The notes below the pieces were generated by a model that saw nothing but the letters and a program-made list of their open reading frames with translations, did no database searches and was not told where the DNA came from. A stretch of 64,000 bases of DNA from Amoebidium appalachense (Eukaryota; Protista; Ichthyosporea): positions 10,720,328-10,784,327 of the forward strand of contig CAVNZM010000002.1 in NCBI GenBank assembly GCA_963693365.1, written 5' to 3'. This document shows, piece by piece, positions 15,962 through 61,097 of the stretch (within the stretch, counting starts at the first letter, position 1; every line of letters begins with the position of its first letter). The position numbers were made by a program, and so were the translations under genes.

Positions 15962-15995
<34 letters not shown>

Positions 15996-16007
15996 TGTGT
16001 GTGTGTC

Positions 16008-16085
<78 letters not shown>

Positions 16086-24459: not shown

Positions 24460-24510
24460 TGACATATACTAATCCGTCTCAGCAGATCAGCCTAAGTCTA
24501 CGATCGAGAT

Positions 24511-24553
<43 letters not shown>

Positions 24554-25188: not shown

Positions 25189-25337
25189 AGCTACACCTTT
25201 CTTTTAGTGCGGTTTTTCGCGCTAGGGTAACGCGGTGACAGTTCCTTCTGGGCTGTTGCTACACCTCATACACACAGAAAAAAAAAAAAAAAAAGAAAAA
25301 AAAAAAAACATAAACACAACCACCCGAACACCACACA

Positions 25338-29600: not shown

Positions 29601-31489
29601 GAAGAGAAGGAGGGGGAGGGGGGGGCTAGTGAGAGACGGGGGGGGGAGGGGGGAAGGGTGGGGAGAGTGAGCAGAAAGGAATAGATGCTGTGTCTGTTGA
29701 TGTGTCTTCTTGGGCTCCGGGGTTGCTTGCTTATAAGTGTAGGGGAGGGGGGGGGAGGTATTTGTCAGTGTCTGAGGTCGGGACCGAGCCTCATGGCTCG
29801 GCCCCTGCCTTAGCACCTACGGCTTTGATCTTAGCTCAGGAGGAAGATGTGTTGATTGGTCTGGTTAAGAATTATTTAGAGGGGCCGGTTGATTCGATTA
29901 AATTCAAAAATAAAAGGCAGATGATTAAGGTAGCTAAGTTAGCAAAAATGTGTCAGGTAGAGCAGGATTTAGTTTATCATTGTTCTGGGCCAGACGGACA
30001 CCGAGTTTGGGTCGCGACGGCACTTGTGCCTGAGGTTTTGCATATGGTGCATGAGCATCCCATGGCTGGTCATTTAGGTGTAAATAGGACGTTGCTTCGT
30101 GTTAATCGTTCGTATTTTTGGCCGGGTATGAGTAGGGAGGTGAGGGATTATGTGTTGTCATGCATGCATTGTCAGGAAAGGAATGAGAGTCCCCACTCTC
30201 GTTCCCGCCCGTCGTTTATTAGGGATTTTAATGTTCGTATGTTTGAACGGGTAGCAGTGGATGTGGTCGGTCCTTTTAATTCTACGGTTGAGGGTAACAC
30301 TGTTCTTGTTACCGTCACCGATGTGGCCACTCGTTGGGTTGAAGTTTTTCCTCTCCCCACTGCTAATGCCGTTTTGTTTGCTCGTATTTTTGTGGATGAA
30401 ATTTGTCTTAGGTTTGGTTGTCCTCGTGTTTTGTTAACGGATAGGAGTCGTGTGTTTTTAAATCAGTTGGTGTCGGAGGTGTGTAAAATTTTAAGGGTAG
30501 CCCATATCACTACGTCTGCATATCACCCTCAAGCAAATGCCATCTCTGAACGTGTGCATGCAGTGTTTCAGAAGTCCTTTGGCAAAATGGTGGATGTGGA
30601 GGCTAATGATTGGGATCATATGTCTAGGTTTATTGCTCATTCATATAATTCTACCCCTCATGCTGTGACTGGTTTTTCTCCGTTTTATTTGGTCTATGGG
30701 CAGGAGGCTATTAGTTTGTTAGATACGGCACTTTTGCCGATGGGGGGGGCTGACCGACTAACCTATCCCCACTGGACTGAGTTCCGGGAGCAGCTACTAA
30801 CCCGGGCCCGGGCTGCACGTGATGCAGCTCTGACCCGTACACAGCAGGCACAGACACGTGCAGACGTGTCCACACGTCCGTTACGTGAATTTGCCGAGGG
30901 TACTTTAGTTTTAATTAGGGATCATACTAGGAAAAAGAGATATAAGCAGGAGCAGGAAGGTAAGGGTGAAGGTGAAGGTCTTCGTAAGTATGGTAAGAAA
31001 TGGTTGCCTCTTTTCATTGGCCCGTATAAAATAGTGGCTAGGTTAGGTCCGACGGAATATAAGGTGCAGAGGTTAGATAATGAGAGTGATGTTAGATTTT
31101 ATAATGTAGATGATATAAAGGAATATTATGATAGGGCCCTTAGGGTTAAACGGCCGGAGGGCCGTCGAGTGTTAGATGCATTCACCCCCGACTATGACGG
31201 GTCGGTGGATGTATCGGAGGCTGCAGTAGATAAAATTATGGATAAAAAGGTTATCGAAGGTAAGGAAGGTAAGGTAAATTATTATTTAATTCGTTTTGAG
31301 GGAGGTTATCAGGAAGATCAGTGGTTGCCTGAGTTTCATTTGGATTGCCCGTTTTCGATTCGTGCTTATGAGCCTAGATTAGTGCAGAGGGAGTTGCCTA
31401 GTGCTCCCTCTAGGCCAAAGAGAGTTATTCCTCAGTTTAATCGTGGTGTGAAAAAGTCGGTGGGGGAGGGGGCCGGGGGGGGGGAGTGA
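26674..31489 (+). CDS. pol: Pol polyprotein (aspartic protease, RT, RNase H, integrase, chromodomain), broken by homopolymer frameshifts and a 346-bp deletion
   Basis: PR ALLDGGAQVN; RT SPVLLVKKPDGSWRLVNDYRALN and YLDD; RH CDAS and YTDHKP; IN HEHPMAGHLG...CMHC, D-D-E core and GPY; chromodomain VDKIMDKK...YYLIRFEGGYQEDQWLPEFHLDC. Confidence 0.95.
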
Positions 31490-31757
31490 TGCAAATACAC
31501 GTAGACACAGGGGGGGAGGGGGAGGGAGGGGAGGAGACCGAGGAGGAGTGTGAACGTAGTCGTAGGAATTTAATTTATTATCATAGGTGTCTCCGTAGGT
31601 ATCAAGCTTATGGTGTAGATTAATTTATTATTTTTCTTCGTCATTTATTTATTTAATTTTTTTTTAGGAGACTGATTAGTCTATGTCTTTTTAGGGGGTG
31701 TTAGATGTAATGTGACTGAGGTGGGACTCAGCTTTTCCGGGGGCCGGGGGGGGGAGT

Positions 31758-31808
31758 TGACATATACTAATCCGTCTCAGCAGATCAGCCTAAGTCTACG
31801 ATCGAGAT

Positions 31809-31853
<45 letters not shown>

Positions 31854-32500
31854 GGCCCGGGTCCACAGATCATCAAGATCAAGTCCGGGGCCTCAAGATA
31901 GCTGTGCAGCTGCGTGCATCATCTTGCCTCTGCCGGCGCAGGGCAGGACCACGTCAGCTGGGACAGCCGACCAATAGAATTCTAATTAGTGTGTAGGATA
32001 GATCGTAGGAGGACTTAGGAATGTGATTGTTCGGGCAGAAGCCCTTTGTAAATATTGGCAAGTTTTGATAGTGTATGCTGCCAAACGTATTTATATATTT
32101 CGATGACAGAGGAAAGGGGGGAGGGAGGGGGGAGGGAGATAGTATGAAATGTAGAATTAGACTCTGCGGTGCCACTAGGGGAAGGGAGAGGGGTGAGACT
32201 TAGATAAATATATTAGTGTGAGCCGATCGACTTAGCTCGTGCAGGCGGCAGGCGCACGATAAAGTTAGATCGGAATGTACGGAATGTGGCATCGTAGGGG
32301 GCCAGGTGATGATGATCTTGTAGGGCACGGCCTTGATGGCCTCAGTGGTAACTTAGTGTGATTCCGTACGGATCTAAGTTTGCCCGTCGGAGCCTGGTCT
32401 GAATAAACTTTACCGTTTTTCTGTACACGTTCGTTCCTTTTCGTGTGTGTACACTTAGTAGAGTGCCGCGTCTCTAGTACACATATAATAGGATACGACA
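31758..32500 (+). repeat. 3' LTR of copy 1
   Basis: Direct repeat of 24460-25188, preceded by the PPT. Confidence 0.97.
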
Positions 32501-32957
32501 AGTTGTAACAGTATGGGCATTGTTGTCCAGTTAATAAAATCCAAGGTGGATCCATACACACACCTTTGGAACAGTAGGCACTCACCAGAGTGCCCATTGG
32601 CAAGTATGAGGTCAAGTACGGCAAATGTGGCAGGTCTTTCTTTATTGGTGCAGTGCGGTGTCACGGTCGTGTACACCTTGTATGTCTTTGGAGGGATACT
32701 ACCTACATACATGATGAGAGCAAACAACTCTTCTGGGATATGTGTGCAGAAAGACTTTATGGTATTTGGGCAGATGGTTCATGATACACGAAACTTGATC
32801 CACTGTAAATTAAATACGCAGTCCCTCCAAGTGCAGGGCTCTCAACTGGTCTATTTTAGCAAGGAATTGCACGCCATGCTAAGTACTCCTTCACAATGAA
32901 GGAGAGGGGTGTTAAGGAGGGGGAGGGGAGGGGAAGGGGCTCTCTCTCTCTCTCTCT

Positions 32958-33351: not shown

Positions 33352-33545
33352 GTGGCAGACGCCTTAGTAATGCAGCATGCTATGATATCATATATGGTGT
33401 CTAGACGCCTTAGTAATGTAGCATGCTATGATATCATATATGGTGTCTAGACGCCTTAGTAATACAGCATGCTATGCCATCATATTATATGGTGTCTAGA
33501 CACCTCAGTAATACAGCATGCTATGATATCATATATAGTGGTGTC
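33352..33545. repeat. ~45-bp tandem repeat (GTCTAGACGCCTTAGTAATGTAGCATGCTATGATATCATATATGGT), about 4 copies
   Basis: Direct inspection. Confidence 0.8.
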
Positions 33546-33698
33546 TCATGAATCCCTCTGATTATCTTGTGCATGTGTCGCTGGCTGCATTTGAATGCTG
33601 CACCGATAAACTCAGTAGGTCGTCAGGTGAGGCGGCTGGGCCCCAGACCGTAGCTATAGCTATAACAGTCACCCCCCATGTTCAGGTGGGTTGGCTGG

Positions 33699-34290
33699 CA
33701 GCAGCTGAGAGCATGCACCCACCAAGGCATGTATCAGCTGAGAGCATGCACCCACCAAGGCATGTAGCAGCTGAGAGCATGCACCCACCAAGGCATGTAG
33801 CAGCTGAGAGCATGCACCCACCAAGGCATGTAGCAGCTGAGAGCATGCGCCCACCAAGGCATGTAGCAGCTGAGAGCACTGCCACCAAGGCATGTAGCAG
33901 CTGAGAGCATGCACCCACCAAGGCATGTAGCAGCTGAGAGCACCAAGGCATGTAGCTGCTGAGAGCATGCACCCACCAAGGCATGTAGCAGCTGAGAGCA
34001 TGCACCCACCAAGGCATGTAGCAGCTGAGAGCATGCACCCACCAAGGCATGTAGCAGCTGAGAGCACTGCCACCAAGGCATGTAGCAGCTGAGAGCATGC
34101 ACCCACCAAGGCATGTAGCAGCTGAGAGCACCAAGGCATGTAGCTGCTGAGAGCATGCACCCACCAAGGCATGTAGCAGCTGAGAGCATGCATCCACCAA
34201 GGCATGTAGCAGCTGAGAGCATGCACCCACTGGCACCAAGGCATGTAGCAGCTGAGAGCATGCACCCACCAAGGCATGTAGCACCTGAGA
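33699..34290. repeat. 33-bp minisatellite (AGCAGCTGAGAGCATGCACCCACCAAGGCATGT), about 18 copies with length variants
   Basis: Direct inspection. Confidence 0.95.
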
Positions 34291-34354
34291 ACATGTTGCC
34301 TGCCTTCTCTCTTGCTTGCCTCCTGCCCGTAGCCTTCATGTTTGCTCACCAGCC

Positions 34355-34815
34355 ATCTCTACATCTAGTGAATCTAGATAACATGCAGCCTGAGATATAC
34401 CATGTCTACAAACCTAGTGATCCAGATAACATGTAGGTATATCATGTCTGCATCTGGCGATCCAGATAACATGTGGATATACCATGTCTACATCTAGAGT
34501 CTAGTGATCCAGACAACATGTAGATCTAGATATATCATGTCTACATCTGGTGATCCAGATACATGTAGATATACCATGTATACATCTAGTGACCCAGATA
34601 ACATGTAGATATACCATGTCTACATCTAATGATTCAGATAACATGTATACGTAGATATATCATGTCTACATCTGGTGATCCAGATACATGTAGATATACC
34701 ATGTATACATCTAGTGACCCAGATAACATGTAGATATACCATGTCTACATCTAATGATTCAGATAACATGTAGATATGTCATGTCTACATCTAGTGATCC
34801 AGAAAACATGTACGT
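34355..34815. repeat. ~40-bp minisatellite (CATGTCTACATCTAGTGATCCAGATAACATGTAGATATAC), about 11 copies
   Basis: Direct inspection. Confidence 0.9.
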
Positions 34816-35383: not shown

Positions 35384-35485
35384 CTTGAGCCAACCACTGT
35401 GACATGAAACATGGAACAAACAGGTCATGAAGTTCTTGTTCTGTCTGGGGCTATTTGCGTCAGACTGTCCCGTAGGCAAAGGGAT

Positions 35486-36201
35486 TGTCGTATCCTATTA
35501 TATGTGTACTAGAGACGCGGCACTCTACTAAGTGTACACACACGAAAAGGAACGAACGTGTACAGAAAAACGGTAAAGTTTATTCAGACCAGGCTCCGAC
35601 GGGCAAAACTTAGATCCGTACGAAATGAGTCTAAGTTACGACTGAGGCCATCAAGGCCGTGCCCTACAAGATCATCATCACCTGGCCCCCTACGATGCCA
35701 CATTCCGTACATTCCGATCTAACTTTATCGTGTGCCTGCACGAGCTAAATCGATCGGCTCACACTAATATATTTATCTAAGTCTCACCCCTCTCCCTTCC
35801 CCTAGTGGCACCGCAGAGTCTAATTCTACATTTCATACTATCTCCCTCCCCCCTCCCTCCCCCCTTTCCTCTGTCATCGAAATATATAAATACGTTTGGC
35901 AGCATACACTATCAGAACTTGCCAATATTTACAAAAGGGCTTCTGCCCGAACAATCACATTCCTAAGTCCTCCTACGATCTATCCTACACACTAATTAGA
36001 ATTCTATTGGTCGGCTGTCCCAGCTGACGTGGTCCTGCCCTGCGCCGGCAGAGGCAAGATGATGCACGCAGCTGCACAGCTATCTTGAGGCCCCGGACTT
36101 GATCTTGATGATCTGTGGACCCGGGCCACCCCCCCCCCCCCCCCCCCCCGATCTCGATCGTAGACTTAGGCTAATCTGCTGAGACGGATTAGTATATGTC
36201 A
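35486..36201 (-). repeat. 3' LTR of copy 2
   Basis: Reverse complement of the copy 1 LTR, with adjacent PPT. Confidence 0.97.
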
Positions 36202-36403
36202 ACTCCCCCCCCGGCCCCCGGAAAAGCTGAGTCCCACCTCAGTCACATTACATCTAACACCCCCTAAAAAGACATAGACTAATCAGTCTCCTAAAAAAAT
36301 TAAATTAAATAAATTACGAAGAAAAATAATAAATTAATCTACACCATAAGCTTGATACCTACGGAGACACCTATGATAATAAATTAAATTCCTACGACTA
36401 CGT

Positions 36404-37893
36404 TCACACTCCTCCTCGGTCTCCTCCCCCCCCTCCCCCTCCCCCCGTGTGTCTACGTGTATTTGCATCACTCCCCCCCCCGGCCCCCTCCCCCACCGAC
36501 TTTTTCACACCACGATTAAACTGAGGAATAACTCTCTTCGGCCTAGAGGGAGCACTAGGCAACTCCCTCTGCACTAATCTAGCCTCATAAGCACGAATAG
36601 AAAACGGGCAATCCAAATGAAACTCAGGCAACCACTGATCTTCCTGATAACCTCCCTCAAAACGAATTAAATAATAATTTACCTTACCTTCCTTACCTTC
36701 GATAACCTTTTTATCCATAATTTTATCTACTGCAGCCTCCGATACATCCACCGACCCGTCATAGTCGGGGGTGAATGCATCTAACACTCGACGGCCCTCC
36801 GACCGTTTAACCCTAAGGGCCCTATCATAATATTCCTTTATATCATCTACATTATAAAATCTAACATCACTCTCATTATCTAACCTCTGCACCTTATATT
36901 CCGTCGGACCTAACCTAGCCACTATTTTATACGGGCCAATGAAAAGAGGCAACCATTTCTTACCATACTTACGAAGACCTTCACCTTCACCCTTACCTTC
37001 CTGCTCCTGCTTATATCTCTTTTTCCTAGTATGATCCCTAATTAAAACTAAAGTACCCTCGGCAAATTCACGTAACGGACGTGTGGACACGTCTGCACGT
37101 GTCTGTGCCTGCTGTGTACGGGCCAGAGCTGCATCACGTGCAGCCCGGGCCCGGGTTAGTAGCTGCTCCCGGAACTCAGTCCAGTGGGGATAAGTTAGTC
37201 GGTCAGCCCCCCCCATCGGCAAAAGTGCCGTATCTAACAAACTAATAGCCTCCTGCCCATAGACCAAATAAAACGGAGAAAAACCAGTCACAGCATGAGG
37301 GGTAGAATTATATGAATGAGCAATAAACCTAGACATATGATCCCAATCATTAGCCTCCACATCCACCATTTTGCCAAAGGACTTCTGAAACACTGCATGC
37401 ACACGTTCAGAGATGGCATTTGCTTGAGGGTGATATGCAGACGTAGTGATATGGGCTACCCTTAAAATTTTACACACCTCCGACACCAACTGATTTAAAA
37501 ACACACGACTCCTATCCGTTAACAAAACACGAGGACAACCAAACCTAAGACAAATTTCATCCACAAAAATACGAGCAAACAAAACGGCATTAGCAGTGGG
37601 GAGAGGAAAAACTTCAACCCAACGAGTGGCCACATCGGTGACGGTAACAAGAACAGTGTTACCCTCAACCGTAGAATTAAAAGGACCGACCACATCCACT
37701 GCTACCCTTTCAAACATACGAACATTAAAATCCCTAATAAACGACGGGCGGGAACGAGAGTGGGGACTCTCATTCCTTTCCTGACAATGCATGCATGACA
37801 ACACATAATCCCTCACCTCCCTACTCATACCCGGCCAAAAATACGAACGATTAACACGAAGCAACGTCCTATTTACACCTAAATGACCAGCCA
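36404..37893 (-). pseudogene. pol: 3' part of copy 2 integrase plus chromodomain, separated from the rest of pol by the insertion
   Basis: AGHLGVNRTLL... through the chromodomain, near-identical to copy 1 positions 30062-31489. Confidence 0.95.
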
Positions 37894-39047
37894 CATCAGC
37901 AATCTTGTCGAATCCATCCATAAGCCATCTAAGACGTCAGCATCTAATCAAAGTCATCTACATCCCACCCTTTAACCCTATCTACCCCATATCCCATCGA
38001 AAAGATGTCAGGATATTTTCGGACCATTTAAAGACGACTTTCAAGTTATCATAAAGATGTCTGGAAATTTCCTGACATCTTTATATACATTTTTCCTGAC
38101 ATCGTTTTCTACACCTAAACCTAACCACTACCCATCCGTAACCCCACCCAATCCCCACCTTTTCTACCCCTAAAATATAGGTATCGTATGATCCTGCACA
38201 TCAAGACCCTTTTATGTCATCTTTAAGGCCACTTTAAAGAGCTTAAATAAGAAATTAAGGCAACAAACAGACATCTAAACGATATCGTTAAAGGGACATC
38301 ATGTACATTACCTTATTGCAACGAGAGGTGATTTAGAGGTCTTCATGTTGACTTTTCTGCATCTAAAAGGGCACATAAGGAGAACTAAATGTTGCCTTTA
38401 CAGTATCTCGGGGCATCGGAATCCTTATTTCACGATGCCTTTATGTCATCAAACGGATCTGTTGCCGACCATACAAAGATACCTTTTGGATCACTCTACA
38501 TGATCTTTATTTCATGCAGACCGATTCACGACATACACATGTCACCTTTATGTTTACTTTGTGACAACTTGTGCAGCATAATAAGTCGACAAAACGATCA
38601 CTACAAGCAATTTAATATGATCATTATACTGTATTCTAATCGTCCAAAAATCTATATTAAAGCATCATTTTGTGCCCCGGTTGATGCCAAGATGATGTCA
38701 GTTCCCCCCAGTCCCCCCCCCCCCCCCCCCCCTTTCCCTTTCCTCCCCGTGGCTGCACATTGAAGTGTCGTTGACCGTGCTGAACAATCTTTAATTTCTT
38801 ATGACACGTCCCACTGGGACGTGTCTCCACTCTTTACATCTACGAGATGTCCCACTGGGACACCCCTCTACTGTCTCAACTATTCAAAACATTAAAATTC
38901 AAGAAAAGAAACACTATAAATTTATGAGAAAAAAACAAACTAAACAAAGTAAACAAACTTGCAAAATAAAATCCAAAATAATCCCCTACAAAAAAGGGGC
39001 AGTACATTTCTTGGGGGGAAGGGGGAGGGGGGGGGGGAGGTGGGGGG

Positions 39048-40350
39048 CTAAGGGGTGAATTTGGGCTTTTTGTGGGGGCTGGCATGACCCTGTTGGCGCC
39101 TTCTCTTCATCGCCGACCTGGTAAGGGGGGTCTCTCCCTCAGCCTCGTTGAACTCAGCCGGAGAGTCCTCACCTTGAAACTCAGCCGCCTCCTCCTCCAC
39201 CCCCTCCACCTGCTGCACGGCCTCGCTGTCACCCTCCGTGCCGCCCACAGCGACATCCTCGCCCTCCTTGCCGACCTTGGCCGCGTCCGTCTCGTTTTCA
39301 CGTTGGTCCACCTTGGGGTCTGGGGCCTCCTTGTGCAGAGACGCGGCCTCCTTAGCGGCCTGCTCCTCCCGCTCCCGCTCCCGCTCCGCCAGTGCCTCTG
39401 CCTCCCTCTCCGCATCGGCCTCCTCCTGCTGCCTGCGCAACTCCTCCCCGGCCTCCCGCTCGGCTGTCACCATCTGGTCCTTCACGTAGTTGTCGTAGTT
39501 TGAGATGTACTGCAGGTAATGGCGGGCACAGAGTCAGATGCTTTACAGAAGTCAGTCTAGAAAACTTTTTCCAACTATGTGATTGTGTTGTTTGTGTTTT
39601 TTTTTTTTTTACGGGGGGGGGGGGGGGGGGGGTTTGCAGATGTGAACAAAGAAGTCTTTTATAAAACAGAACAGACTAAATGCTAACTAGCTCGAGTGTC
39701 GGCACGCTATAGTGTAGTAAGCCATAATCACACCATAAGGGGGGGGGGGGGGTAGGAATTATAATGAACTTAGCGTAAGTCTCGTGAGCCATGATGAAAC
39801 ACCCCACAGCTCAAGTGTCAGCATCCTATTGCCTAGCCAAAAGGGGAGGGGGGGGGGGGGGGGGGGGGACCCACCAACTTGATGTTGCCTTCGGCCGCAG
39901 CACCGTCATAGTTGGGGTCGTCACATTCGAATTTCACGGGGGTCCACTTGTTGATGAGCTTGTGTTGGTTGGGGTCTCGCAGCGACACCTCGAAGCAGTT
40001 GACGACCAGCCGGAAGAATGCCCTGTGGTCTCTGGCGATATCCTGCCCAGTGCTTCTTTAGTGATCTGTTTTCAAAAGAGGTAAAGTTCGGAAGGAATAC
40101 ACATAAGGAAGAGAAGAGAAGAGACAGATAATGTTGTCGTCATATTGTCTTACTGACATCCAATGGATGTCATTAGGATCATATGACGACAACATTATGG
40201 CCCTTCATGATGTAAGAATGTGACCGTAATTCTCTATGATGATGCTTAAAACTGTCTTTATTCTTGAAATATTCCAAGCATTTGCAGACCTAGGAATATG
40301 CATCAATTTTTTTTCGATTCGATTCGTGGAATGTTCATGGTGGAGGGGAG

Positions 40351-40385
<35 letters not shown>

Positions 40386-42437
40386 GGGGGAAGAAAGCGT
40401 TATGCAAGTAAATATATACGATGAAAGCAAGTTATTTGGGAAGTTAAACCGGTGATCAGAGGAGAACGTGGAAGGGTGAAAGGGAGTGTGTGTGTGTGTA
40501 TGTGTGTGTACACACGTGTGTTGGTTGAAGAGCGAGTATGTGTGAGTGGGTGGTGGGCAGGAGGGAAGGGGGGGGGGGGGGGGGGGGGGTCCTTTGATGT
40601 AGTCTAGACTCAGAATGTGTTGAAAGTGATTTGTTGGGGACATTACATACCAAGGCAGTCTTGTTGCCAAGGACAAGCCGCACAGCCTTCAATGAGATGC
40701 TGCTGAACAGGCGGGAAAACGGCTGGTACCCGAACGGGTTGCCCGTTTCAGGGTCGACAGAGTACACGCGGCCGCACGGCTGGCCATTCAGCTTGACCTC
40801 ATCCAGGAGGGCCAGCCACAGCGCTGGTCGCTCATCGGCAGTTGGGGCGTAGGCGACCAGCTGTGAATGTGTGTTTGAATGCAGCAAAAGAAAGGAAACA
40901 GAAGCGAGTGGTGGTGAAGCAGGTGGCGGTGGCGTTGTGGGGGGGGGGGGGGGGGAGGGGGGGGGGGGGGTTAGTTAGTCCATGATTGTGTATTACAGAA
41001 GACTGTCAATAAAATATTATATAAATACAATGAAAAGAAAGTATTATTACTACATTACTACTTGAAACAGCTACATATCTCCATCCCTGTACAAATGACG
41101 TTAATGGCATACAAGTAGATTAGAACAAAACAGCTACATATCTCCATCCCTGTACAAATGACGTTAATGGCATACAAGTAGATTAGAACAAAACAGCTAC
41201 ATATCTCCATCCCTGTACAAATGACGTTAATGGCATACAAGTAGATTAGAACAAAGTAACCTGTGTGCTAGGATGCGTGTGAGAAGAGTTAAGCCCATTG
41301 TCATAGAAGGAGTCCGTTGAGTACGGAGGCGGGGGACCCGGGGGGGGGGGGGGGGGGGGGGGGGGGGAATACATCGAGATTGGTCCCAGGTACAACGTAC
41401 CCAGTCCTCAGGAAGTTGCGGACGTGCTGGTGGACATTGGACTTGATGGAGGTGATGCCCGTGCGGATTTTGGAGATATACTTCTGTGCGGGATCGCTAC
41501 GCACACAGTTGCGGATGATGTGGACCCACTTGGCCACGGCCTCCTGATTCAGCTTCGCGCTTGACGTCTCGACTTTCTGAAGAACCTCAACGAACTTTCC
41601 AGCCAGGTCCCCATCGTGGGCGTTGTTGATCTGGGGTGACTCCAGCACAAGGTGCTGGTAGATGTTGTGGGTCTTGGAGGACTTTTCCACATAGTCATTC
41701 TGACGGTGATGGAAAATGTTAGAAAACAAGAATGACGATGTGAATAAATCTTGATGGAGCTATAAATCCTCCATGCTGGAAACGTGCTGTAGCAGTTGCT
41801 TTGAAATGACCAAGTTTGAATAGTTCCTTCAGTTTATCCACTTAGACAGAATAAGGGTGTGGATGTAGTAAGGATGGGTTTAGTGCGGGTAGGGGGGATG
41901 AATGCATTAGGAGGTGGCAGCATGAGGTGGTGGGATGGCAACAATTCCTCCACAAGGATGAGCTTTGATCACAGAGATTGGTGGGGGGAGGGTTGTTTGA
42001 AACATAACTACTACAATAGGTAAGAGAAACAAAATCAAAACGAAACCAAGGGAGGGATAGGTTGCCTACCAGGAACTGGGTGGTCTCCTGAAAGGATAAT
42101 GTCTCGGGGTGTTTCTTGGAGGGGGAGGGGGTTGGGCGACGGGAAGGGGTGGTAGGGGTGCGGCCCAGCCCAGGCGCAGATGGAGACGGAGGCGGCTCTG
42201 GATCATCAAGCACTGGCAGTCTCGCCTCCTTGCCCAGGAGGGCGCGCAACTGCTCCCTCATGGCGGCGCGACTGTAGGAGCGGATGAGCTTTCGCATCCT
42301 CTGGGAGGTGTAGGTTGGGTGCTTGCCCGACAACACCAGTGTGTAAAAAAGGACCTCGAGCTGATCCTCGCGGTTGTAGGGGCATTCATCCTCGTCGTTG
42401 AAGTTGTTCTCGTCATCTTCCTGGACTTCTGTGACTG
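39048..42437 (-). CDS. Cluster of coding exons of unknown function ending in an acidic, NLS-bearing tail; either the C-terminal part of the JmjC gene or a second cargo gene
   Basis: Exon-like open segments at ~42437-42070, 41699-41401, ~40860-40651, ~40055-39878 and ~39510-39048 (…MKRRRQQGHASPHKKPKFTP*) with GT/AG boundaries and coding-like codon use. Not all intron phases could be reconciled by eye. Confidence 0.65.
41066..41255. repeat. 63-bp tandem repeat x3, intronic
   Basis: AACAGCTACATATCTCCATCCCTGTACAAATGACGTTAATGGCATACAAGTAGATTAGAACAA repeated. Confidence 0.92.
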
Positions 42438-42909
42438 AAGAATAGTAGGACTAATGTTAGTACAATTGTTGGAATCGTAGAAAACTAACAGAAGTGCGGA
42501 AACAGGGCAACCCTGGCAACAGATAGTATTTTCCGGCATGATCCAGATAACTATTGGAGGTCATCATATGACCCAAAACACCACCGAATCCCCCCCTTTC
42601 CCAACCATTTCTACACCAAAAATGATCTATCGTATGGATATCCCCATCAACATATCGTGGGTGAATGCGGAGGTTTCGAAAACACAAAAGAACTAGTTGA
42701 CGTGGACAGGCGAGTGGGGGGAGCGAGTAAACCACACTAGCAGCAGGTGTGTTTAGAAAGAGTGGAGTGGGTGAAGGGAGAGTATATAAACGGAGGGGGA
42801 GGGGGGGGGGGGGGGAGGGTTGAATGCAGTCAACAGAACAAAAGTACAAATACAACGGGGAGTGTGGGTGGGTGAGTGCGGGGGGGGGGGGGGGGGGGGG
42901 TTTGACCAA

Positions 42910-44279
42910 TAGCAACGGCTATGTTTTCCTGTGTAACTGACTGGAATCCCGCTATCATGTTCTCCACACTAGGCAAGAAGTGTTCCCGACACTCGCACGT
43001 GGGATACAGCGCAAGCTGGTCGATCCAGAGAAAAGTTGCGGTGTTCACTGCTAGCGCAATGTTCGGGCCAACCTGAAAGCCATAGTGAAGCGCTCCAGGT
43101 GTGGTTTGTACCAAGTCGCCGGCGCGCTGTACGACTATGACAGGTGCCAACCCTATGGATGCAAGGTAACGCGGAGACCGAGGGATATAATTTTTGTGCT
43201 GAAGTGGGTTTCTGCACGAGCCTGGCAATTCGTTGCGGGCCAGCTGTAAGAGCCGTTTGTACTGGGAGGGAGGGTGGATAAACCACACCTTAATGCCCCA
43301 CAAAAGAAGGCTTGCTGAGGCCAGCGCGGCATCTTCAATGTGTGCACCAAACACTGTTAAACCCAAGACAGACAACTGCACGTACAACATGGCAACATTG
43401 ATTCCTGGCATTGTTTCCCCGAAATGATTTCTTCCCAACGGCGTGAAGTCACTGATTGCAGTTACATTGAAAACACGTTCGTCGAATATTTGATCACCAT
43501 CCACCTCGACATCGGATGCATAGACACCACCAACACCTTCCAGGTTTTCCTCAAACAACTGCGCTATCTGCTCACTGCTCATTTCACCCAAACCACTAAC
43601 ATCTTGAGGCAACGTTTGACACTTGGAAAGGTCCACGCTGACAGGCTCCCGGCTTATCTCGCACCATGACTCGGACACGCGAGTTACTGTTTGCCTACAC
43701 GCTTGCTCTTTTATCTCTTTGGTCGAAAACTGTTCCATCGCATCACGAAAAGGAACAGGAGGTGCAAACCCCTCTAATAAACAACAGCCCTCCCGTTTCT
43801 CTTCAGCACTGTGCAGGGCACGAAGTGCCTTTAAAGCCTTTTCCCTATTCATGAAAGACGAAGCGCAATGTTGTTTTTATGTTTGAAGATTTTAAAAGTT
43901 TTTGATGTTACAGTGAGAAAGCCTAGGTGAAACTGACAACGAGCACACGCGTAACGACTATTTATGCAGCAGGGGGTGTAAAACACAAACACAACCCACC
44001 TTTCCTCTTCGGCTGCAGCATGGCGAGGGCGGCCGGGGCCGTAACTGAGGTGATGCCTTTGAGGAGAATACCGACTGACTGCCCAGTAGGGCTTTCAGCC
44101 TTGCTGGGATTCTCCCTGCCCCTACCCCCGGCCTTGCTATCCTTGCCGCCCTTGCCGCCCTTGCCGCCCTTGCTGGCGGCCACGGGCTCGCTGCAGTCCG
44201 AGTCGTCGAACGGCGTCTCAACCTTTTTGCGCTTGGGAAGCTTGGTCGTTGTGGCGCCCATTTTCGCGGTCTTTGGCAT
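42910..44279 (-). CDS. KDM4/JMJD2-like JmjC histone lysine demethylase (exon 1 ~44279-44000; catalytic exon ~43845-42910)
   Basis: YASD, PGINVAMLY, FGAHIED (HxE), GIKVW, SCRNPLQHK, QRAGDLVQTTPGALHYGF (distal His), NIALAVNTA and TCEC align motif by motif with KDM4A YGAD, EGVNTPYLY, FAWHTED, PKSW, SCEAFLRHK, QEAGEFMITFPYGYHAGF, NCAESTNFA and LCSC. Confidence 0.9.
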
Positions 44280-45708
44280 GGTGGAGACGTGGAAGGCGTA
44301 AGCGCGAGACAGAGCGATGACGATATGTGGTCATATGGACCACAAAGATGTGTTATGTGGGGTTTCTGTTGCAGTTCCGGTTGGGAAATGGATTGCAATC
44401 GTATGCCCATGAAAACATTTTAATTGGTTGATCATCGCATAAGCTGAAGCCAATCAAACGCGTAACCCAATCACAGACGGCGAAAACATATGATATGTTT
44501 TCCCCCCACACCACCTGCAATTTGCTGAGGTTGGACCCTGGTCATCAAGACTTCTTGGCCATAAAATGACAATACAATTACAGCAAAACATTCTGCAGAA
44601 ACCCGATATTCTCACATTTAAAGTGTTTATAAAAAGCCTTAGTTTCAAGTAGAGGCATTTTTTTTCTTGCTTTGTGTCGACGACATCTTTTATCCGCTTG
44701 AAATTTGTCAGCACCCATAATTCTACTATTACAGTACGTTGTATGTGGGGATCACCATCCGTCTTTCCTGTTTTAACTCGCGCTGAGGCAGAAGTTATAA
44801 GAAGCAGACGGGGAAAACTCAGCATAAGAGATCAATGAAATGAACATAAATATTAAATTACCAGACAATTTACAGTGCAAATTTTCTAGTAATTTCTAAC
44901 GTCCATTACGAAAGAAAATAACCAACTTTTGACTTGCACCTGTTTTCCCTGCCGCGCTCAGGTATGTGGGTCTATCGGATGGGAAGGTGTGGACCTGACA
45001 TTGAGCTTATCGAGTCGAGTGGCCGCAGGGAGAATGAGCAATTAATATGATACTATTGGAATATTAATAGTTGAACTCTTCTGCATTTTTTATTGTTTTT
45101 TTGTATTTTTTACACTGTCCACATTTATTGACACTTATATAAGGACCGAACGATTAGGTAGGCTATGCCAGTGGATTCCCATGTTTACGAAGTGCGCGCG
45201 CTGCCTAGAGTGGCCACATGTATGCATGACAGATCACCAATGATATTTGCAACGCACGCAAACCAAACAACATCCAGGTCGTTGAAATCTCCACGGTTGT
45301 TCTAATAACACATTCAGCTTGTATATTTACTTTTAAGTTTGTTATTTTTTATGTCAATGTCATATATGGGCATGCGCACCTAGTAGCATCAGTGTTGGAC
45401 GAAGCAACGCAGCATGATAGAGTTTATGCCATAGCAGACCAATCGCCGCATTGGAACTATCCGAGTACGTGATAAATGTCCAATCACCACGATTAGGATT
45501 ATTGGACATCTTCATGTTGTAGGAAACACCACCCGGGGGTCAACGCGGACTCCACGACATCAGGCAAGGGACATCATGATCAACACAACCCATCCACATC
45601 CCAGCTGGACGCACACGAGAGATCTATCTGTACTATAAAATATATATGTATATACACTGTTTTGATAAACTTTGTGTATGCACGTGATGTGCGGTAAAGC
45701 GCGTCAAA

Positions 45709-52723
<7,015 letters not shown>

Positions 52724-53459
52724 AGGTAGCAATGGGTGAGGCTATGCAAATTGTCGTACCCTTAAAAGATGCCTTTATGGGGACTTTTAGACTACATTTT
52801 CCTTTTTTCCCATCTCGATCACCCCCACATCCGAACCTTTCGGATATCTTTATGAGATCTGTTTGACAATATGTTGATGTCTGAATCGAGTGCATAATTT
52901 TTGTTTTCGGCTTGGATTCACTTAATAATGCCAATCGTTGCCGCATCTATATGTATCTGTGGACCCTGTAGTGGCCACATCAGCTAACAAATAACGGAAA
53001 GGGTTGTGGCCATTAGTATATCTAGTATATCTAGTAACAATGCTGACAGTTACCGTAAGCCTGCCCGCCCACATGGGCCCGTATGGACAACTAAATGACG
53101 ACTTAGTGGCGGGTTTATGATGTCTCGGACGATGGAATTTGTGCACGCGCACGTGCACCAAGTCTGTGACACAAGGGTGTTGCTCCTCTGCCATATCTGA
53201 TACGACTTCTTTCATGAATCATTCATTAAATATGCAACAATATTATTATCTGTTATAAATTATATCAAAATATATCTTTACAACCAAGGTTGTTGGTAAT
53301 TATCTACACTAGCCATATGGGTGGAATGGCTGGGCCAGAGCCAGACGAGGAGATGGGCGAAGACGCAGAGTAAATTTTCTGTTTGTTGATGAGTGGGGGT
53401 GTAGGGGGTTTGGTTTTCACGTGTGTCAGTAGCCTGTAACATATAGGCGCTGTGCCGAT

Positions 53460-55144
53460 GTCAGAAGTTTAAGTGGACTGCAACCCAACCTTTTAGGTAT
53501 ATATTGACATCCAAATAGTATAGGTTTACTACGAAAAAGATATCAGAACTTATCGTTATAGCATCTTTACATTCTCCTGCTGATATCATTATATACATGT
53601 TGACATCCAAATGGTATAAGTTTATGGCTAAAAAGATATCAGAACGTATCAATATAGCATCTTTACATTCACCTGATGTCCATCTTGCGATGCTTAAAAG
53701 TGCACGGAATCGATCTAGCCTGGGTCCAAAAGATGCCTCGAACCCATCCCAGGAATCTCATGATGACCATCCAAAACACATCAAAGGGACAATTGCAAGA
53801 CACCATAATGTGCATATATATAGATTCATCTTCAGACAACTAACGGCTCCTGAAAAGTGCATACAAGGACCACTTAAAGACCCTAGAGAGATGCTGTGGA
53901 CTCCATTCTAGTATGAGAATTGCATCCAGCAACATTATAGCATCTATATATGCCTATCATGTGCACCGGGTAATCCACAAACCATCTATGACGTCGTGGA
54001 TGTGGACCATCGCAAAGATCACATAGAGACCCTAACTAGATATCATAAAGTGCACATGCTGTGCCTAGAACAGGGATAAATCAGGAATGATGATATAATA
54101 TGCACCAGAAATACACTTAGACATCTGAGGGTACCTAGGGGGTACATATGGATGGGAAAAGGATAGGATATTCAGAGATCTGTAATACCACATCATCAAC
54201 ACCATAGGTCCACATGTAGATGCCTTCAAGTGCACGGAATCGATCGAGCCAGGGTCAAAAAGATGTCACAAACCCATCCCAGAAACCTCATGATGACCAT
54301 CCGAAAGGCATCTAAAAGACCACGTAAAGGCCATATAAGATGCAAATATGGTTTTCCCTCATGACAACTAAATGTTCCTAAAAGGTTCATTAACAGACCA
54401 CTTAAAGACGTCAAAAAGATGCTGTATACCAGGAATAGCGTCCAGCAACATTAAAGCAACCATATATGCCTATCATGTGCACCACCCAATCCACATACCA
54501 TCTATGACGTCGTGGATGAGGTCCATCTACAAGAGCACATAAAGACACTTTGTCGATCATTAAAAGTGCATATGCTGTGCATATAACAGCGAAAAAACAA
54601 TATGGATCGTATAAAATGCACTAAAACTAGTCTTGGACATCATAGGGGACTTAGGGGGTAGAAATGGATGGGAAGAAAATATGATCATATAAAGTGGTCC
54701 ATATAATGTCTATGTGCACCGGAAATAAACTAGAAGTACACTTGGACGTCCTGGAGTACTTAGGGTGTACTTTGGGATGGGTACAAGAAAAGAGCATTTA
54801 ATGTGGTCTTTAGATGGTCCATATCACCACCCAAACCCCACCAAATTGTGTTTGGAAAATTTTGAACATCGGGGCATTTAATATGCATTTAGGATGGGTT
54901 GTAGATCATTTCATGACACCATAGTAGATGCCTTGCGGTGCTGTTCTGGATGATGGATGATATCAAGTCCCCTTTATCCCCTCCTGGACATCATAGATGA
55001 GTTATGGATAGTGGCCATCCAAATTGTTTACGACCCCCACATCCCATCTAGATGTCATCATGTAGGTAGGTTGTGGTGGATGTGTGGGGTGGATATGGTG
55101 GGAGGACCCCCAAAAGGTGTCCTGGATGGGATCCGGATCGCCGA
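53460..55144. repeat. Right subterminal repetitive region of the Plavaka element
   Basis: A ~117-bp tandem duplication (53460-53680), a degenerate ~530-bp-offset direct repeat (starts 53698 and 54228), and recurrent GGACCAYTTAAAGAC and GATGTC/GACATC motifs. Confidence 0.75.
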
Positions 55145-55159
55145 ACAAGATTGCTGATG

Positions 55160-58100
55160 CATGGGATGCTCATGCACCATATGCAAAACCTCAGGCACAA
55201 GTGCCGTCGGGACCCAAACTCGGTGTCCGTCTGGCCCAGAACAATGATAAACTAAATCCTGCTCTACCTGACACATTTTTGCTAACTTAGCTACCTTAAT
55301 CATCTGCCTTTTATTTTTAAATTTAATCGAATCAACCGGCCCCTTTAAATAATTCTTAACCAGACCAATCAACACATCTTCCTCCTGAGCTAAGATCAAA
55401 GCCGTAGGTGCTAAGGCAGGGGCCGAGCCATGAGACTCGGTCCCGACCTCAGACACTGACAAATACCTCCCCCCCCCTCTCCTACACTTATAAGCAAGCA
55501 ACCCCGGAACCCAAGAAGACACATCCACAGACACAGCATCTATTCCTTTCTGCTCACTCTCCCCCCCCCCTTCCCCCCCTCCCCCCCCCGTCTCTCACTA
55601 GCCCCCCCCTCCCCCTCCTTCTCTTCTTCAAACAAAATATAAGCAGCACGAGAGAGAGCATCACAGTCAACCATTGTTTCACCCTTGGCATAAAACAATT
55701 TATAGGAGAACTCACCGAGAGCCGCGGCCCACTTCTGCATCCTCTCGTTCACCAGACGAGTGGTGCCGGCCATGGCTAGGCAGGGCTTGTGGTCGGTGTA
55801 GACCTCAAACGTCCTGCCTGCGAGTATATACCTCCATGCCTGTGAGACTGCCCAAAAGATAGCATGGGACTCTCTCTCCGGATTGCTATATCTACGTTCA
55901 CTTTTACTAAATGAACGACTAGCATAAGCAATCACTCTATCCTGCCCCTCCTGCACTTGATATAACACGGCCCCCTCAGCAACCTTACTTGCATCACACC
56001 GAACTTTAAACATTCCCCCCCCGGCCGAAAAATCAGGATGAACAAGCATACTCGAAGACTGCAAAGCTAACTTAAGCTTTTCGAAAGCAGAAACAGCATC
56101 AACATTCCAATCTATTCTATTCTTCTTCTCCCCCCCCGTCTGACTAGTTAACGGCAAAGCCAGCATACTATAATCCTTAATATAACGACGAAGATAATTA
56201 GTTAAACCTAAAAATTGCCTTAGTTGAGTGACAGTCTGAGGACGGGGCCACTCAACTATGGCCCGGATTTTCTCCGGATCAGGGGAAAGACCATTACTAG
56301 ACACAATATGACCTCAAAACTTAATCTCTGGCACACCAATCACAGTCTTGCTACCGCTAATACGGAGACCAGACTCACCCAAAGCTAAAAATACTTTTTC
56401 ACAATTATTAACTAACTCCTCAAATGACCTACCTTTAATTAAAACATCATCCAAATAAGGGTGGCATACATCCAAATGAGGGTGGAGAATTTTATACATT
56501 ACCCGGCACAACATAGCTGGAGAGGAGAGCAAACCCATCGGCACCACCTTGTACTGGAACAGCTGGTCCCCCAGTGCAAAGGCAGTCTTCTCCTTGCTGC
56601 TCTCCTCCAACCTTATCTGCCAAAAAGCTGCTTTTAAATCAAGTTTAGCAAAGTGAGTATAGCCGTGCAGCTGTGAAAGCTGCTCGTCTATGTTAGGGAG
56701 AGGCCATTGGTCTGCCTTAGTGATCCGATTCAGAGCCCTGTAATCGTTCACTAGACGCCAAGACCCGTCGGGCTTCTTAACCAATAGCACCGGACTTCTC
56801 CACGGACTCGAACTATGCTCCACATGACCCTTTTTTAACATATCACTCACTATTATTAGCGCATCCGACAATTTATACTGCTCCATTCTATAGCTAGGCA
56901 TCACTACCGGCCTATTATCACCTGTGTCGATCTGCATTTCAAACCCTTTAACGAAGCCTACTTCGTTATCATCGGCCAGAAATGCAAACCGAGTCCTATC
57001 AAATAACTTAGCTAGCAATTTTTTCTGTTCTACCGTCCAATCCCCCTCCTTCATACCAAACGGCAATACTAACTCCGGGTTACCCCCATCACAAGTGGAT
57101 GCATCCTTATTCACCGGAGTGCCACTTAACATTTCACCTCCTGTATTACATCGGTGCTGCTCGGGGTGAGGTTGAGGTGCCTCCGGATATAGGCGGTCAC
57201 CCTTAGCACCCCCCCTCCCCCCGGCACACCAATGCCCCCGGGCAATTCCTGATGAGTTAGTGCATGTATGTGGGGGGCCAGGTCTGTGGCCACCCTGCCC
57301 CCCACGGTGTTGGTTAACCCGTCAGATCCACGGGTTAGACCAACACCCTCCCCCCCTGCCTGCACATTCTCACACCCGGGGTGACCCTCCTTCCTCTTGG
57401 GGGTCGGGGGAGTGGGACCGGTGCTGTCCCGGTCCCCCCCCCCATCGTGTCGGGTGACATTTTGGTGGCTAACGTTAAATAAAGTTGTTCCCCCTCCTCC
57501 TGAGTCACCCTTCGAGCCGGCATCCTCCTTTTGGGTAATAAGAGAGACCTCTATACTACCAATCTCATTAGTGAAACTACCGACGGAAACACCTGACCTA
57601 ATCACTATAGGCTCGATGCCCGGATTCACTAATTCTATTTCTATTGTCTTATCCGGCCATACCCTACTAAGGGTCCATTGGGCCACCTCCTGAAATGGGG
57701 TTTTCGGAGTAAAAACCCCTAAATCCCCTATCCTAACATGATTGCCGGCCCGGACACGTACCGTTTGGCACTGATAAGGCTCGATTACTACTTCAGCTAC
57801 CGTTCTAGCACCAGACTGATAACCGTCGAGCCCATCATGGGTTTTAATTTTAACGCCGGACTGCAATTCTAAAACATTCGTACGTTCAAACAAAGCATTC
57901 ACATGTCTACGGAAAAATGGGGCTCCCAACAAAACACTTTGAGCTAAATCCTTAACCACATAACAAGCAATATGCATAGCCTGGCCACCTATCTCACACG
58001 GCAACACACAAACACCTTCCACAGACATACTACTATTATTAGCACTACCTAAGGCTGTGCTAGAGGCATCTAAAATAGGAATTTCCCCCCCGGCCTGATT

Positions 58101-58894
58101 AAAACGACGAATAAACGAAGCATGCACACAATTAACCTGAGCCCCTCCATCGAGCAAAGCAACAGCCTTCAACTTACCATCAGCTAACCATACGTCTATA
58201 TAATGCCGGCTAAAACCAACTAAATCCTCCTCCAATTCAAGCAACACATCATCACTCACACCCAATCCCTGCCCCCGAAGACTCACACCCTCGATACCTA
58301 CGTGCAACATACCTACCTGTGGTGCCTGCACGGGTGGGGTGGGGTGTGTATGTGGTGTGGGCGGTGGTGGAGTGTGTGTGTGTGATGTGTGGGTGGGTGG
58401 TGTGTGTGTGGTTGGTGTATGTGTGGGTGTGTGTGTGGGTGTAGGTGTGTCTGCAACCGTCGTATGTTGTTGTGGTGGTGTGTGTCTACGTGTCTGTGCC
58501 TTCCCCCCCTTCCCCCTTTACTCGTGTGTGTCCCCCCCCCTCCCGGAAACAATGGCACAGAAACCCCCTCCGGTGTGGTTAGAATAAACACCGGGTTGGG
58601 ACAAGAAACACTGAGACCATCCACTTGTGGCTGGGGAACCTTCCCCAACCACAAAACATTCACACCATTCATACCTTTGGTAGAGTGACCCCACAAACAT
58701 TCATGCCATACCACCTCGACGCTGTCTTGAGGACCCAGGACGATGCCCGGCTCCCACACGTATCGGGGCGGTGAGGGGGCAAAGGGAAGCTTAACCTGGG
58801 GTGGGGGAGGGTGAAGGTTCTCTGCAACCTGGGGGGGACCGATACTGTCCCCCCCCCCTCCCTCCGTGACCCCAGCTTCCCCCTCCCCCGGAAC
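55160..58894 (-). pseudogene. pol: 5' part of copy 2 pol (protease, dUTPase-like segment, RT, RNase H, start of integrase)
   Basis: ORFs 57126-58331, 56314-57132, 55540-56304 and 55058-55534. In-frame nonsense change TTA>TGA in RT KFLGH at 56314-56316. Truncated at HEHPM by the insertion. Confidence 0.93.
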
Positions 58895-60229
58895 TCAATA
58901 GCTCTTGTAACTACGGCAATATGCAGCAGAGTGCCCTTGTCGGCCACAAAAGTAACATGCACCAAAGAAGGGGCCAGGGGGGACTTCAAAACCTTGGCGC
59001 AAAGCATAACCGGGAGCCCGGTCATGCTGGGGGGGCCCACCGTGTGCACCACGGCCCCCCCTTCCCCCCTGCCCCCCTCGGCCTCTCTCACCACCATTTC
59101 CACCCCTCCCTCTACCCTGCCCACCACCACGAGCAAGATAAGGGGCAAACCTCTCGGTGAACTGCTGCTGTTGTCCTCCACGTCCACCTCGGCCACGACC
59201 GCCGTGTCCACCCCGGTCGCCGCCACGGCCACCCCGGAAGCCGAAGCCCCCTCGGCCAGAAAAGACGGCCTGGGAGAGCTCGGCAACCTGCTTGACCAAC
59301 ATGGTGAGTGCATCTGGCTGTTCACCCTCTTTTTTCTCTTTTTCCTCCTTCTGTCCACTCTCCTTCTTTTTCTTGTCTACTTCCATCACCTCCTTTTTAT
59401 CCCTCTTATTGAACTTCACCTCGTGCATGGCAAGCAAGTGACGTTTAACATGCAACACCACCTCATCTACATCATCATGCTCCCCAAACATGCGTGCAGT
59501 GTCTGTGTTTACAGAGAGAGCCTTACGAGCAAACTCAAACTTTTCCCTATCACTCACGTCACCAGCTAACTCACAAAGGTCTTCAAAGACCCGATATTCC
59601 CTCTCAAAGAATGCACGAGCTTCTACGGGGGACATATCTAAAGTGGGAAAGGTATACTTCCATTCTCTGAGCTGGGCCCGGAAGGTACGGCGCCGGTCGG
59701 CCGTCAGGTATCGGCCGACGAGCCGGGCCGTATACTCGAGCTCGTTTTCCGGCCGTGTGAAGGCCTCGAGCTCCCCGTCCACGTCGTCGGTGCTGTTTTC
59801 GTCCTCGTCGTCGGGGATGAATCGTGCGGCCAGACGTTTCTGGCCGAGTGTCCGGGACACCATCTCGTCCCTCCCCTCGTCGTACTGCTGCTCGTATATA
59901 CGAGCCGTCACCTGGGGGGCCTGCTCGGCCCGGTACGGGTGCTCCTCCATCAGGGTGCATAAGTCGGCCATTGTTTTGTGGTCGATGCACTGTTTGATCA
60001 TTAAGCACGAGGCCGCCACAGTGGGGGCCTTCTTTGTGTCTAACACTAGTGTGGGTGTGTTAGCTAGGAGTGTCCTAAGCCACCTAGGTATTTCCGAGTC
60101 GTGTTTGAGTGTAAAACTGAAAGCTGTGGTCTGTCTAACGTCTAGTGTATGAACCTGTGGTACCTGTGTGTGCAGGGAGCTATCCTCCGCTGCCAATGCG
60201 TAGAACATGTCTACGTTAAACTTAGCCAT
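58895..60229 (-). CDS. gag: Gag of copy 2, intact 444 aa, RGG-rich with CCHC knuckle
   Basis: Single ORF ending CYFCGRQGHSAAYCRSYKSY*. Confidence 0.95.
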   Translation of the reverse strand: MAKFNVDMFYALAAEDSSLHTQVPQVHTLDVRQTTAFSFTLKHDSEIPRWLRTLLANTPTLVLDTKKAPTVAASCLMIKQCIDHKTMADLCTLMEEHPYRAEQAPQVTARIYEQQYDEGRDEMVSRTLGQKRLAARFIPDDEDENSTDDVDGELEAFTRPENELEYTARLVGRYLTADRRRTFRAQLREWKYTFPTLDMSPVEARAFFEREYRVFEDLCELAGDVSDREKFEFARKALSVNTDTARMFGEHDDVDEVVLHVKRHLLAMHEVKFNKRDKKEVMEVDKKKKESGQKEEKEKKEGEQPDALTMLVKQVAELSQAVFSGRGGFGFRGGRGGDRGGHGGRGRGGRGGQQQQFTERFAPYLARGGGQGRGRGGNGGERGRGGQGGRGGRGAHGGPPQHDRAPGYALRQGFEVPPGPFFGACYFCGRQGHSAAYCRSYKSY

Positions 60230-60376
60230 TGTGTGGTGTTCGGGTGGTTGTGTTTATGTTTTTTTTTTTTTTTTTTTTTTTTTTTTTCTGTGTGTATGAG
60301 GTGTAGCAACAGCCCAGAAGGAACTGTCACCGCGTTACCCTAGCGCGAAAAACCGCACTAAAAGAAAGGTGTAGCT

Positions 60377-61097
60377 TGTCGTATCCTATTATATGTGTAC
60401 TAGAGACGCGGCACTCTACTAAGTGTACACACACGAAAAGGAACGAACGTGTACAGAAAAACGGTAAAGTTTATTCAGACCAGGCTCCGACGGGCAAAAC
60501 TTAGATCCGTACGAAATGAGTCTAAGTTACGACTGAGGCCATCAAGGCCGTGCCCTACAAGATCATCATCACCTGGCCCCCTACGATGCCACATTCCGTA
60601 CATTCCGATCTAACTTTATCGTGTGCCTGCACGAGCTAAGTCGATCGGCTCACACTAATATATTTATCTAAGTCTCACCCCTCTCCCTTCCCCTAGTGGC
60701 ACCGCAGAGTCTAATTCTACATTTCATACTATCTCCCTCCCCCCTCCCTCCCCCCTTTCCTCTGTCATCGAAATATATAAATACGTTTGGCAGCATACAC
60801 TATCAGAACTTGCCAATATTTACAAAAGGGCTTCTGCCCGAACAATCACATTCCTAAGTCCTCCTACGATTTATCCTACACACTAATTAGAATTCTATTG
60901 GTCGGCTGTCCCAGCTGACGTGGTCCTGCCCTGCGCCGGCAGAGGCAAGATGATGCACGCAGCTGCACAGCTATCTTGAGGCCCCGGACTTGATCTTGAT
61001 GATCTGTGGACCCGGGCCACCCCCCCCCCCCCCCCCCCCCCCCCGGATCTCGATCGTAGACTTAGGCTAATCTGCTGAGACGGATTAGTATATGTCA
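60377..61097 (-). repeat. 5' LTR of copy 2
   Basis: Near-identical to 35486-36201. Confidence 0.97.

Follow-up and report, generated by a model that had tools for sequence, protein, structure and literature searches.

The JmjC gene considered here is carried by a PlavakaB DNA transposon that is complete and was inserted recently, and which lies within a 64,000-nucleotide stretch of an Amoebidium appalachense contig (the window, whose positions are used throughout). A preliminary description of the same DNA called the gene cargo, correctly as the element boundaries show, and concentrated on the conserved catalytic residues of the encoded domain, but the transposon context outweighs that residue list in importance. 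We infer, with confidence only a little above even for both activity and substrate, that the gene encodes an anti-silencing demethylase borne by the transposon. The features of the element and of its cargo gene are collected in the table.

Coordinates of the transposon, its genes and its insertion site
Feature	Position	Strand	Remarks
Complete PlavakaB DNA transposon	37894..55159		17,266 bp; splits gypsy B; empty site supplied by intact sister copy
Left TSD, CA	37892..37893	+	comparison with intact gypsy copy
Left TIR, 15 bp, starts CATCA	37894..37908	+	junction comparison; other flanks in X1, X3
Right TIR, 15 bp, ends TGATG	55145..55159	+	junction comparison
Right TSD, CA	55160..55161	+	comparison with intact gypsy copy
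Plavaka transposase gene	45709..52723	+	nine predicted GT-AG exons; PF18759
Tandem array, 376 bp x 4.1	50242..51772		last transposase intron
Shared upstream region of the divergent cargo and transposase genes	44280..45708		candidate two-way promoter, from sequence and model coordinates
Predicted exon 1 of cargo gene	44000..44279	-	Lys/Gly-rich, basic stretch; model, GC3 0.78; splice to exon 2 predicted
JmjC exon, KDM4-like catalytic core	42907..43773	-	predicted, 867 nt, phase 1-1
Zn ligands with adjacent Lys and Arg	42989..43216	-	sequence alignment
Five downstream exons	42434-42070, 41699-41373, 40860-40651, 40042-39875, 39509-39048 (span 39048..42434)	-	about 510 aa, acidic tail, basic end
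Gypsy B, host of the insertion	35485..61097	-	LTRs 35485-36201 and 60376-61097; 5-bp TSD

The transposon and its insertion site

Self-comparison of the window revealed two gypsy copies that are 99% identical, the second of which, copy B, is interrupted between 37893 and 55160. The empty site of its sister allowed the target-site duplication (TSD) of the inserted element to be measured as 2 bp, and the 15-bp terminal inverted repeats (TIRs) form a perfect pair. The TIRs were read from the junction comparison; runs of CA/TG swamped the inverted-repeat scan. The LTRs of the interrupted gypsy differ at only 2 of 717 columns, from which the insertion of the transposon is taken to be recent. Contigs from two public runs of one sample (X1 and X3) begin at the left TIR, exactly at 37893/37894, with two different flanks, so that, together with the present locus, at least three left-end contexts are found for the element. 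These contigs are of low depth and do not tie the other flanks to copies with JmjC, and this was counted against the favoured explanation. The uninterrupted gypsy site is present in runs X1, X3 and X7, which, like the other flanks, speaks for mobility of the element.

The transposase gene is modeled as a stop-free product of 1043 amino acids from nine exons, two of which match the Pfam family PF18759 (E 4e-21 and 5e-8). The modeled protein carries a C(2)C and an H(3)H motif, at residues 453 and 687. PlavakaB elements are described as having CATCA..TGATG ends and a TSD of 2-3 bp (Kojima 2025, PMC12730594). On the strength of PF18759, the ends, the TSD and the two motifs, the element can be assigned to PlavakaB, in the CMCT clade. 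The cargo and transposase genes are arranged head to head, 1.43 kb apart. The right subterminal region (53689-54685) contains two blocks of about 480 bp that are 75% identical to each other.

The surroundings of the element are a mixture of repeats and host genes. Gypsy copy A (24460-32502, plus strand) appears intact and has a 5-bp TSD, and tandem arrays with units of 46, 33 and 40 bp lie between the two gypsy copies at 33357-34812. A 346-bp segment in the protease/RT region of gypsy B (57545-57890) is missing from copy A, having been gained by B or lost from A. Host exons at 3-1057 and 13640-17350 on the minus strand belong to a HIP1R/Sla2-type I/LWEQ gene, which is nearer to the human than to the yeast protein, and to an acetyl-CoA synthetase. 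At the other end, a stop-free frame of at least 574 amino acids without a Pfam match runs out of the window (62279-64000, plus strand).

The CGC/GCG context is reported to be hypermethylated in Amoebidium (PMC11244446). This context is strongly avoided in gypsy copy A, with an observed/expected ratio of 0.36 (0.18 in pol) against 1.1-1.3 for other CG contexts, which is a hint of context-specific host methylation as in that report. Over the whole Plavaka element the ratio is 1.11, with no avoidance. Transitions at CpG account for 8 of 37 across three internal gypsy segments, too few substitutions for a test of CpG decay.

The cargo gene and the family of its product

The open reading frame first noted on the minus strand, 43852-42830 (340 amino acids), is probably not a complete gene but exon 2 of a longer one. 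A seven-exon model running from 44279 to 39048 encodes 892 amino acids without a stop, comprising in order a basic N-terminus, the JmjC domain, about 350 residues of no known family, an acidic tail and a basic end. The basic stretch of exon 1 resembles a nuclear localization signal. Alternative boundaries for the JmjC exon are an acceptor at 43844 or 43808, or a start at the ATG at 43852. The JmjC domain matches JmjC clusters in the Atlas; none of the five downstream exons has a Pfam match above the cut-off, and one of them (exon 4) has no usable Atlas match. A perfect array of three 63-bp units occupies 41065-41255 in intron 4.

The downstream exons are fused to the JmjC exon in the model, but they may belong to a separate gene. 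One 1537-nt contig from run X6, presumed to be RNA, spans exons 3-7 and lacks their introns; GT-AG joints are listed for two of the junctions. In this copy, exon 3 has lost 2 nt and gained 5 nt, with a stop in the frame between the two changes, and the contig looks as if it stems from a degenerate copy. No X6 contig covers exons 1-2, and none of the listed RNA runs matched 42910-44300, two blanks that have no bearing on whether the gene is expressed. A second, unspliced X6 contig (42409-42658) enters predicted intron 2 by 224 nt, which disfavors fusion and fits a separate downstream gene. For fusion there are the 45 codons of exon 3 that precede its first in-frame ATG, whose GC3 is of the coding type (0.76, against 0.59 and 0.25 for the two alternative frames), together with matching phases and a poly-C tract and branch-like word in intron 2.

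GC3 also differs between the JmjC exon (0.52) and the six other exons (0.77; Fisher p 2e-13), and this contrast suggests that the JmjC exon entered, as a cassette, an accessory gene that was already resident. The same contrast, which indicates a history different from that of the neighboring exons, and the symmetric 1-1 phase of the modeled cassette are what one would expect had a host JmjC exon been captured by accident, in the Pack-type manner, and carried along as a neutral rider. Such an accident is nevertheless quite improbable, as the domain is only 25-35% identical to canonical KDM4 and yet intact, a diverged paralog shows mostly silent changes, and a neutral passenger of this age should have decayed.

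In runs X1 and X3 this paralog shows about 80% identity across 43257-43351. Nine of its 19 differences are listed, and these touch eight codons, six synonymously and two conservatively, sparing the Ser and Lys codons. A 99% identical copy in X1 carries three replacement and two silent codon changes in the JmjC exon and is uninformative on selection. The proposal that selection has maintained the active site is supported by these mostly silent paralog changes and by the best database relative, P0102 (E 6e-35, 37% identity over 242 amino acids), which keeps the HxE, K, HK, H and CxC residues.

The open reading frame matches the Pfam JmjC family PF02373 with an E value of 3.4e-14. A search of 177,635 PDB sequences placed KDM4C, D, B and A on top (E 6e-18 to 3e-16, with KDM4C at 6e-18), followed by Rph1 and KDM5 types. 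The predicted fold, built on a 94-row alignment composed mostly of KDM4-type relatives, reaches a pLDDT of 85 and a pTM of 0.88, whereas the single-sequence fold reaches a pLDDT of only 32. It superposes on residues 49-327 of KDM4A with a Z score of 23.8, an rmsd of 3.4 over 265 of 282 residues and a TM score of 0.76, and the 50 VIA rows listed in the structure search are all KDM4 entries, with Z scores of 22-24. The structural check proposed in the preliminary description thus gave a KDM4 catalytic-core fold in the model, with an alignment that is largely KDM4-type. The folded model leaves out the 43852-43774 stretch and contains no metal; the Zn site is judged by sequence.

No related loci were found in the viral contigs or in the metagenome contigs, and no named Amoebidium protein appeared among the 30 match clusters that were looked up. 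A word-index protein search matched none of 2924 near-length candidates and one of 3941 longer ones; seeding with this one longer match gave 100 proteins, mostly KDM5-like. A quick tree of 76 rows and 204 columns places the query outside the KDM5 clade (SH-aLRT 100), among long branches without resolved order. The matches also include P0101, P0106 and P0238, KDM4-like proteins that are divergent and bear names from Bemisia, Frankliniella and Orchesella; P0106 and P0238 sit on long branches of the tree.

Identity to the human KDM4A-D cores is about 26%. Neither Pfam (E<=5) nor a profile built from 26 relatives, which gave the control P0107 68 bits, detected a JmjN domain. The 28 residues before the acceptor at 43773 can be aligned in register with JmjN, but the score does not exceed that of shuffles (75 of 500 were as high), and a degenerate JmjN remnant in the 43852-43774 stretch is at most a possibility. 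As JmjN is not detectable, the protein is described as KDM4-like rather than as a KDM4 member. The absence of PHD and Tudor readers claimed previously holds both for the open reading frame (Pfam) and for the seven gene pieces at E<=5.

The catalytic core and the proposed mechanism

The preliminary description held that all Fe(II), 2-oxoglutarate (2OG) and Zn ligands of KDM4 are kept. For iron and zinc the residues bear this out. The His-x-Glu ligands of Fe(II) lie at 43342-43334 (-), exactly where they had been placed, and the third ligand, the distal His of ALHYGF, at 43087-43085 (-). The four Zn ligands are Cys 43216, His 43198, Cys 42997 and Cys 42991, with the CxC at 42997-42989, and the HK pair is formed by His 43198 and Lys 43195. 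All four Zn ligands are present in 140 of 148 relatives, this total being the 150 listed matches less P0101 and P0104, which contain internal repeats. For 2OG the claim fails. The ligands in KDM4A are reported to be Tyr132, Asn198 and Lys206 (PMC6010108, PMC8162366); the equivalents of Tyr132 (in YASD, 43522-43520) and Lys206 (in GIKVW, 43291-43289) are present, and the Asn198 site, in the motif SINYLH, is Ser (43312-43310, minus strand), a replacement that had itself been recognized. Among the 148 relatives, position 198 is Asn in 133, Ser in 14 and Asp in one; since Ser is common to P0102 and 13 other relatives, it is a lineage trait rather than a private lesion. The KDM4 hallmarks found are thus the Fe triad, the Cys-His-Cys-Cys Zn site with Lys241, and the Tyr132/Lys206 pair.

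The equivalents of Tyr177, Lys241 and Asn290, which are reported to orient the methyl-lysine in KDM4A (PMC8162366), are also kept. The methyl-state pocket reads ALAVN at 43057-43043, as stated before, but the further suggestion that it is closer to the KDM4D type lacks support. Ala288 occurs in 76 of the 148 relatives, AVN in 26 and the KDM4D-type AIN in 16, while Val289 is found in 68 of 76 aligned KDM5-like rows (out of 100); the AVN pocket, as these alignments have it, is common among KDM4 and KDM5 relatives and not specific to KDM4D. A KDM4D type was rejected on the grounds that the pocket is Ala-Val, not Ala-Ile, and that the Leu75/His90 hairpin positions align, with moderate confidence, to Cys/Ser. 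Kinship with KDM4D was likewise rejected, as the quick tree sets the three named KDM4D-like proteins apart in a separate clade, distant from the query.

Two of the three residues that read the Arg at the -1 position of H3 in human KDM4A differ, Glu169 being replaced by Pro and Tyr175 by Met. Pro at 169 (79 of 148 relatives) and Met at 175 (31 of 148) are both common; the two changes were nonetheless counted against the demethylase reading.

In the mechanism that we favor, the encoded Fe(II)/2OG demethylase would strip repressive methyl groups from H3 lysines in the chromatin of the element, with H3K9me3/me2 as the most likely mark. Exons 1-7 would form one 892-residue nuclear protein, in which the C-terminal region of no known family would take the place of the PHD/Tudor readers as the targeting part. 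Demethylation would keep the shared upstream region active, such that transposase expression could be sustained. A working demethylase is favored by the stop-free gene models, the retained Fe, Zn and pocket residues, the KDM4-like fold and the mostly synonymous paralog changes, while the Asn198 replacement and the undetectable JmjN call for caution on catalysis.

The domain might instead have kept its fold with weak or dead catalysis, and act as a methyl-lysine binder or as a scaffold that shields the element or recruits other factors to it. The undetected JmjN, a domain reported to be essential for KDM4 activity (PMC4224472, PMC3806659), the Ser at 198 and the long tree branch would all be consistent with such a role. 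However, nothing is missing among the Fe ligands and the equivalents of Tyr132, Lys206, Lys241 and Asn290, and the 37%-identical relative shares the Fe triad, Lys and HK pair, whereas in a dead domain the Fe triad should be the first to go; a catalytically spent domain is therefore unlikely.

It is similarly improbable that the protein is an active dioxygenase with a target other than the H3K9 of the element, be it H3K27, H3K36, a protein that is not a histone (the transposase, for example) or the genes of the host in general. The changed residues of the substrate groove and the AVN pocket, as seen in KDM5-like proteins, would suit a different substrate, and KDM4 enzymes are reported to act also on H3K36, H3K27 and H1.4K26 (PMC6010108). 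Set against this are the retained Zn site and the Lys and Arg beside it, a region described as shaping the H3 groove in KDM4A (PMC6010108). Moreover, these Cys residues are absent from most of the KDM5-like rows, and the quick tree, with the support given above, keeps the query out of the KDM5 clade.

Viral origin and known systems

In A. appalachense, divergent, multi-exon KDM4-like genes with only a JmjC domain have been described in viral insertions, with a proposed anti-silencing role (Sarre 2024, PMC11244446). The present gene is alike, by description, in its divergence, its several exons, its single detected domain and its proposed role, and the 52 viral insertions of that report give some reason to ask whether the gene is a remnant of an endogenized giant virus. 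This is, however, highly improbable. The gene is enclosed by a perfect TIR pair with its TSD, its flanks are the gypsy element and host genes (HIP1R-like and acetyl-CoA synthetase), and the best viral structure match has a TM score of only about 0.4. No giant-virus marker family was found in the 37 + 147 open reading frames scanned in the window. The window holds 239 frames of at least 90 amino acids, 173 of which remained once gypsy-region and low-complexity frames had been filtered out, and 147 of these were scanned; most of the remaining 26 overlie the two element genes, whose frames were scanned separately. A giant endogenous viral element was rejected, there being neither core giant-virus genes nor an intron-poor, gene-dense block. 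A viral remnant at this locus is thus largely refuted, and the JmjC exon may still be of ultimately viral origin.

The KDM4-like genes of Sarre 2024 are assigned to viral insertions, whereas the gene here lies in a TIR-bounded, intron-rich Plavaka; the "Plavaka giant repeats" of that report are a separate class, described as intron-poor clusters with tyrosine recombinases (PMC11244446). A tentative proposal, which we regard as possible but doubtful, is that a transposon with its own H3K9 demethylase, self-targeted by a new C-terminal domain, is the vehicle of the intron-containing KDM4-like expansion in Amoebidium that has been credited to giant viruses. If PlavakaB copies moved into viral insertions that were silenced, this would account for the KDM4-like genes being the only ones there to have kept introns. 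The same vehicle would explain the presence of KDM4-like genes among host genes and their want of relatives in public giant-virus genomes, as well as their dominance among the genes reactivated after 5-azacytidine. The element thereby gives the published account of the expansion, a viral origin, a rival that can be tested.

The core resembles those of human KDM4A-D (PDB 2q8e, 4xdo and 4hon) in its fold, Fe triad, Zn site, Tyr and Lys ligands of 2OG and methyl-lysine pocket, but differs from them in having no detectable JmjN, Ser for Asn198, no PHD or Tudor domains and an unrelated C-terminal region. It would also show whether a KDM4 core works without JmjN and Asn198. PMC11244446 was the only literature found to join KDM4 with Plavaka, and the openly accessible papers searched, a set without Repbase Reports, yielded no description of a DNA transposon that contains a KDM4-like gene.

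Red-algal giant Plavaka elements, which carry PAG1-3 (10.1101/2025.02.11.637652), are similar in their length of 17-19 kb, their chromatin-enzyme accessory genes and their internal tandem array. Their cargo differs, comprising SET, DNA methylase and a ParB/2OG protein, and the term JmjC is absent from the main text of that preprint. The TET/JBP PlavakaB elements of Agaricales (PMC12730594) share the Plavaka transposase, the CATCA..TGATG ends, the 2-bp TSD and, as cargo, a 2OG/Fe dioxygenase to which a role against silencing has been ascribed. The present element carries a JmjC protein of the histone-demethylase type and not a DNA dioxygenase, and JmjC is likewise absent from the main text of PMC12730594. 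Both the red-algal and the TET/JBP elements serve as functional precedents for the anti-silencing reading. Counter-silencing by transposons is described mainly for VANDAL/VANC and for TET/JBP and SET cargo (PMC12730594; Bostrychia preprint 10.1101/2025.02.11.637652). To these, a KDM4-like eraser in an element that is young and looks intact would add a histone-demethylase route, and the element provides one defined 17-kb unit in which counter-silencing can be tested.
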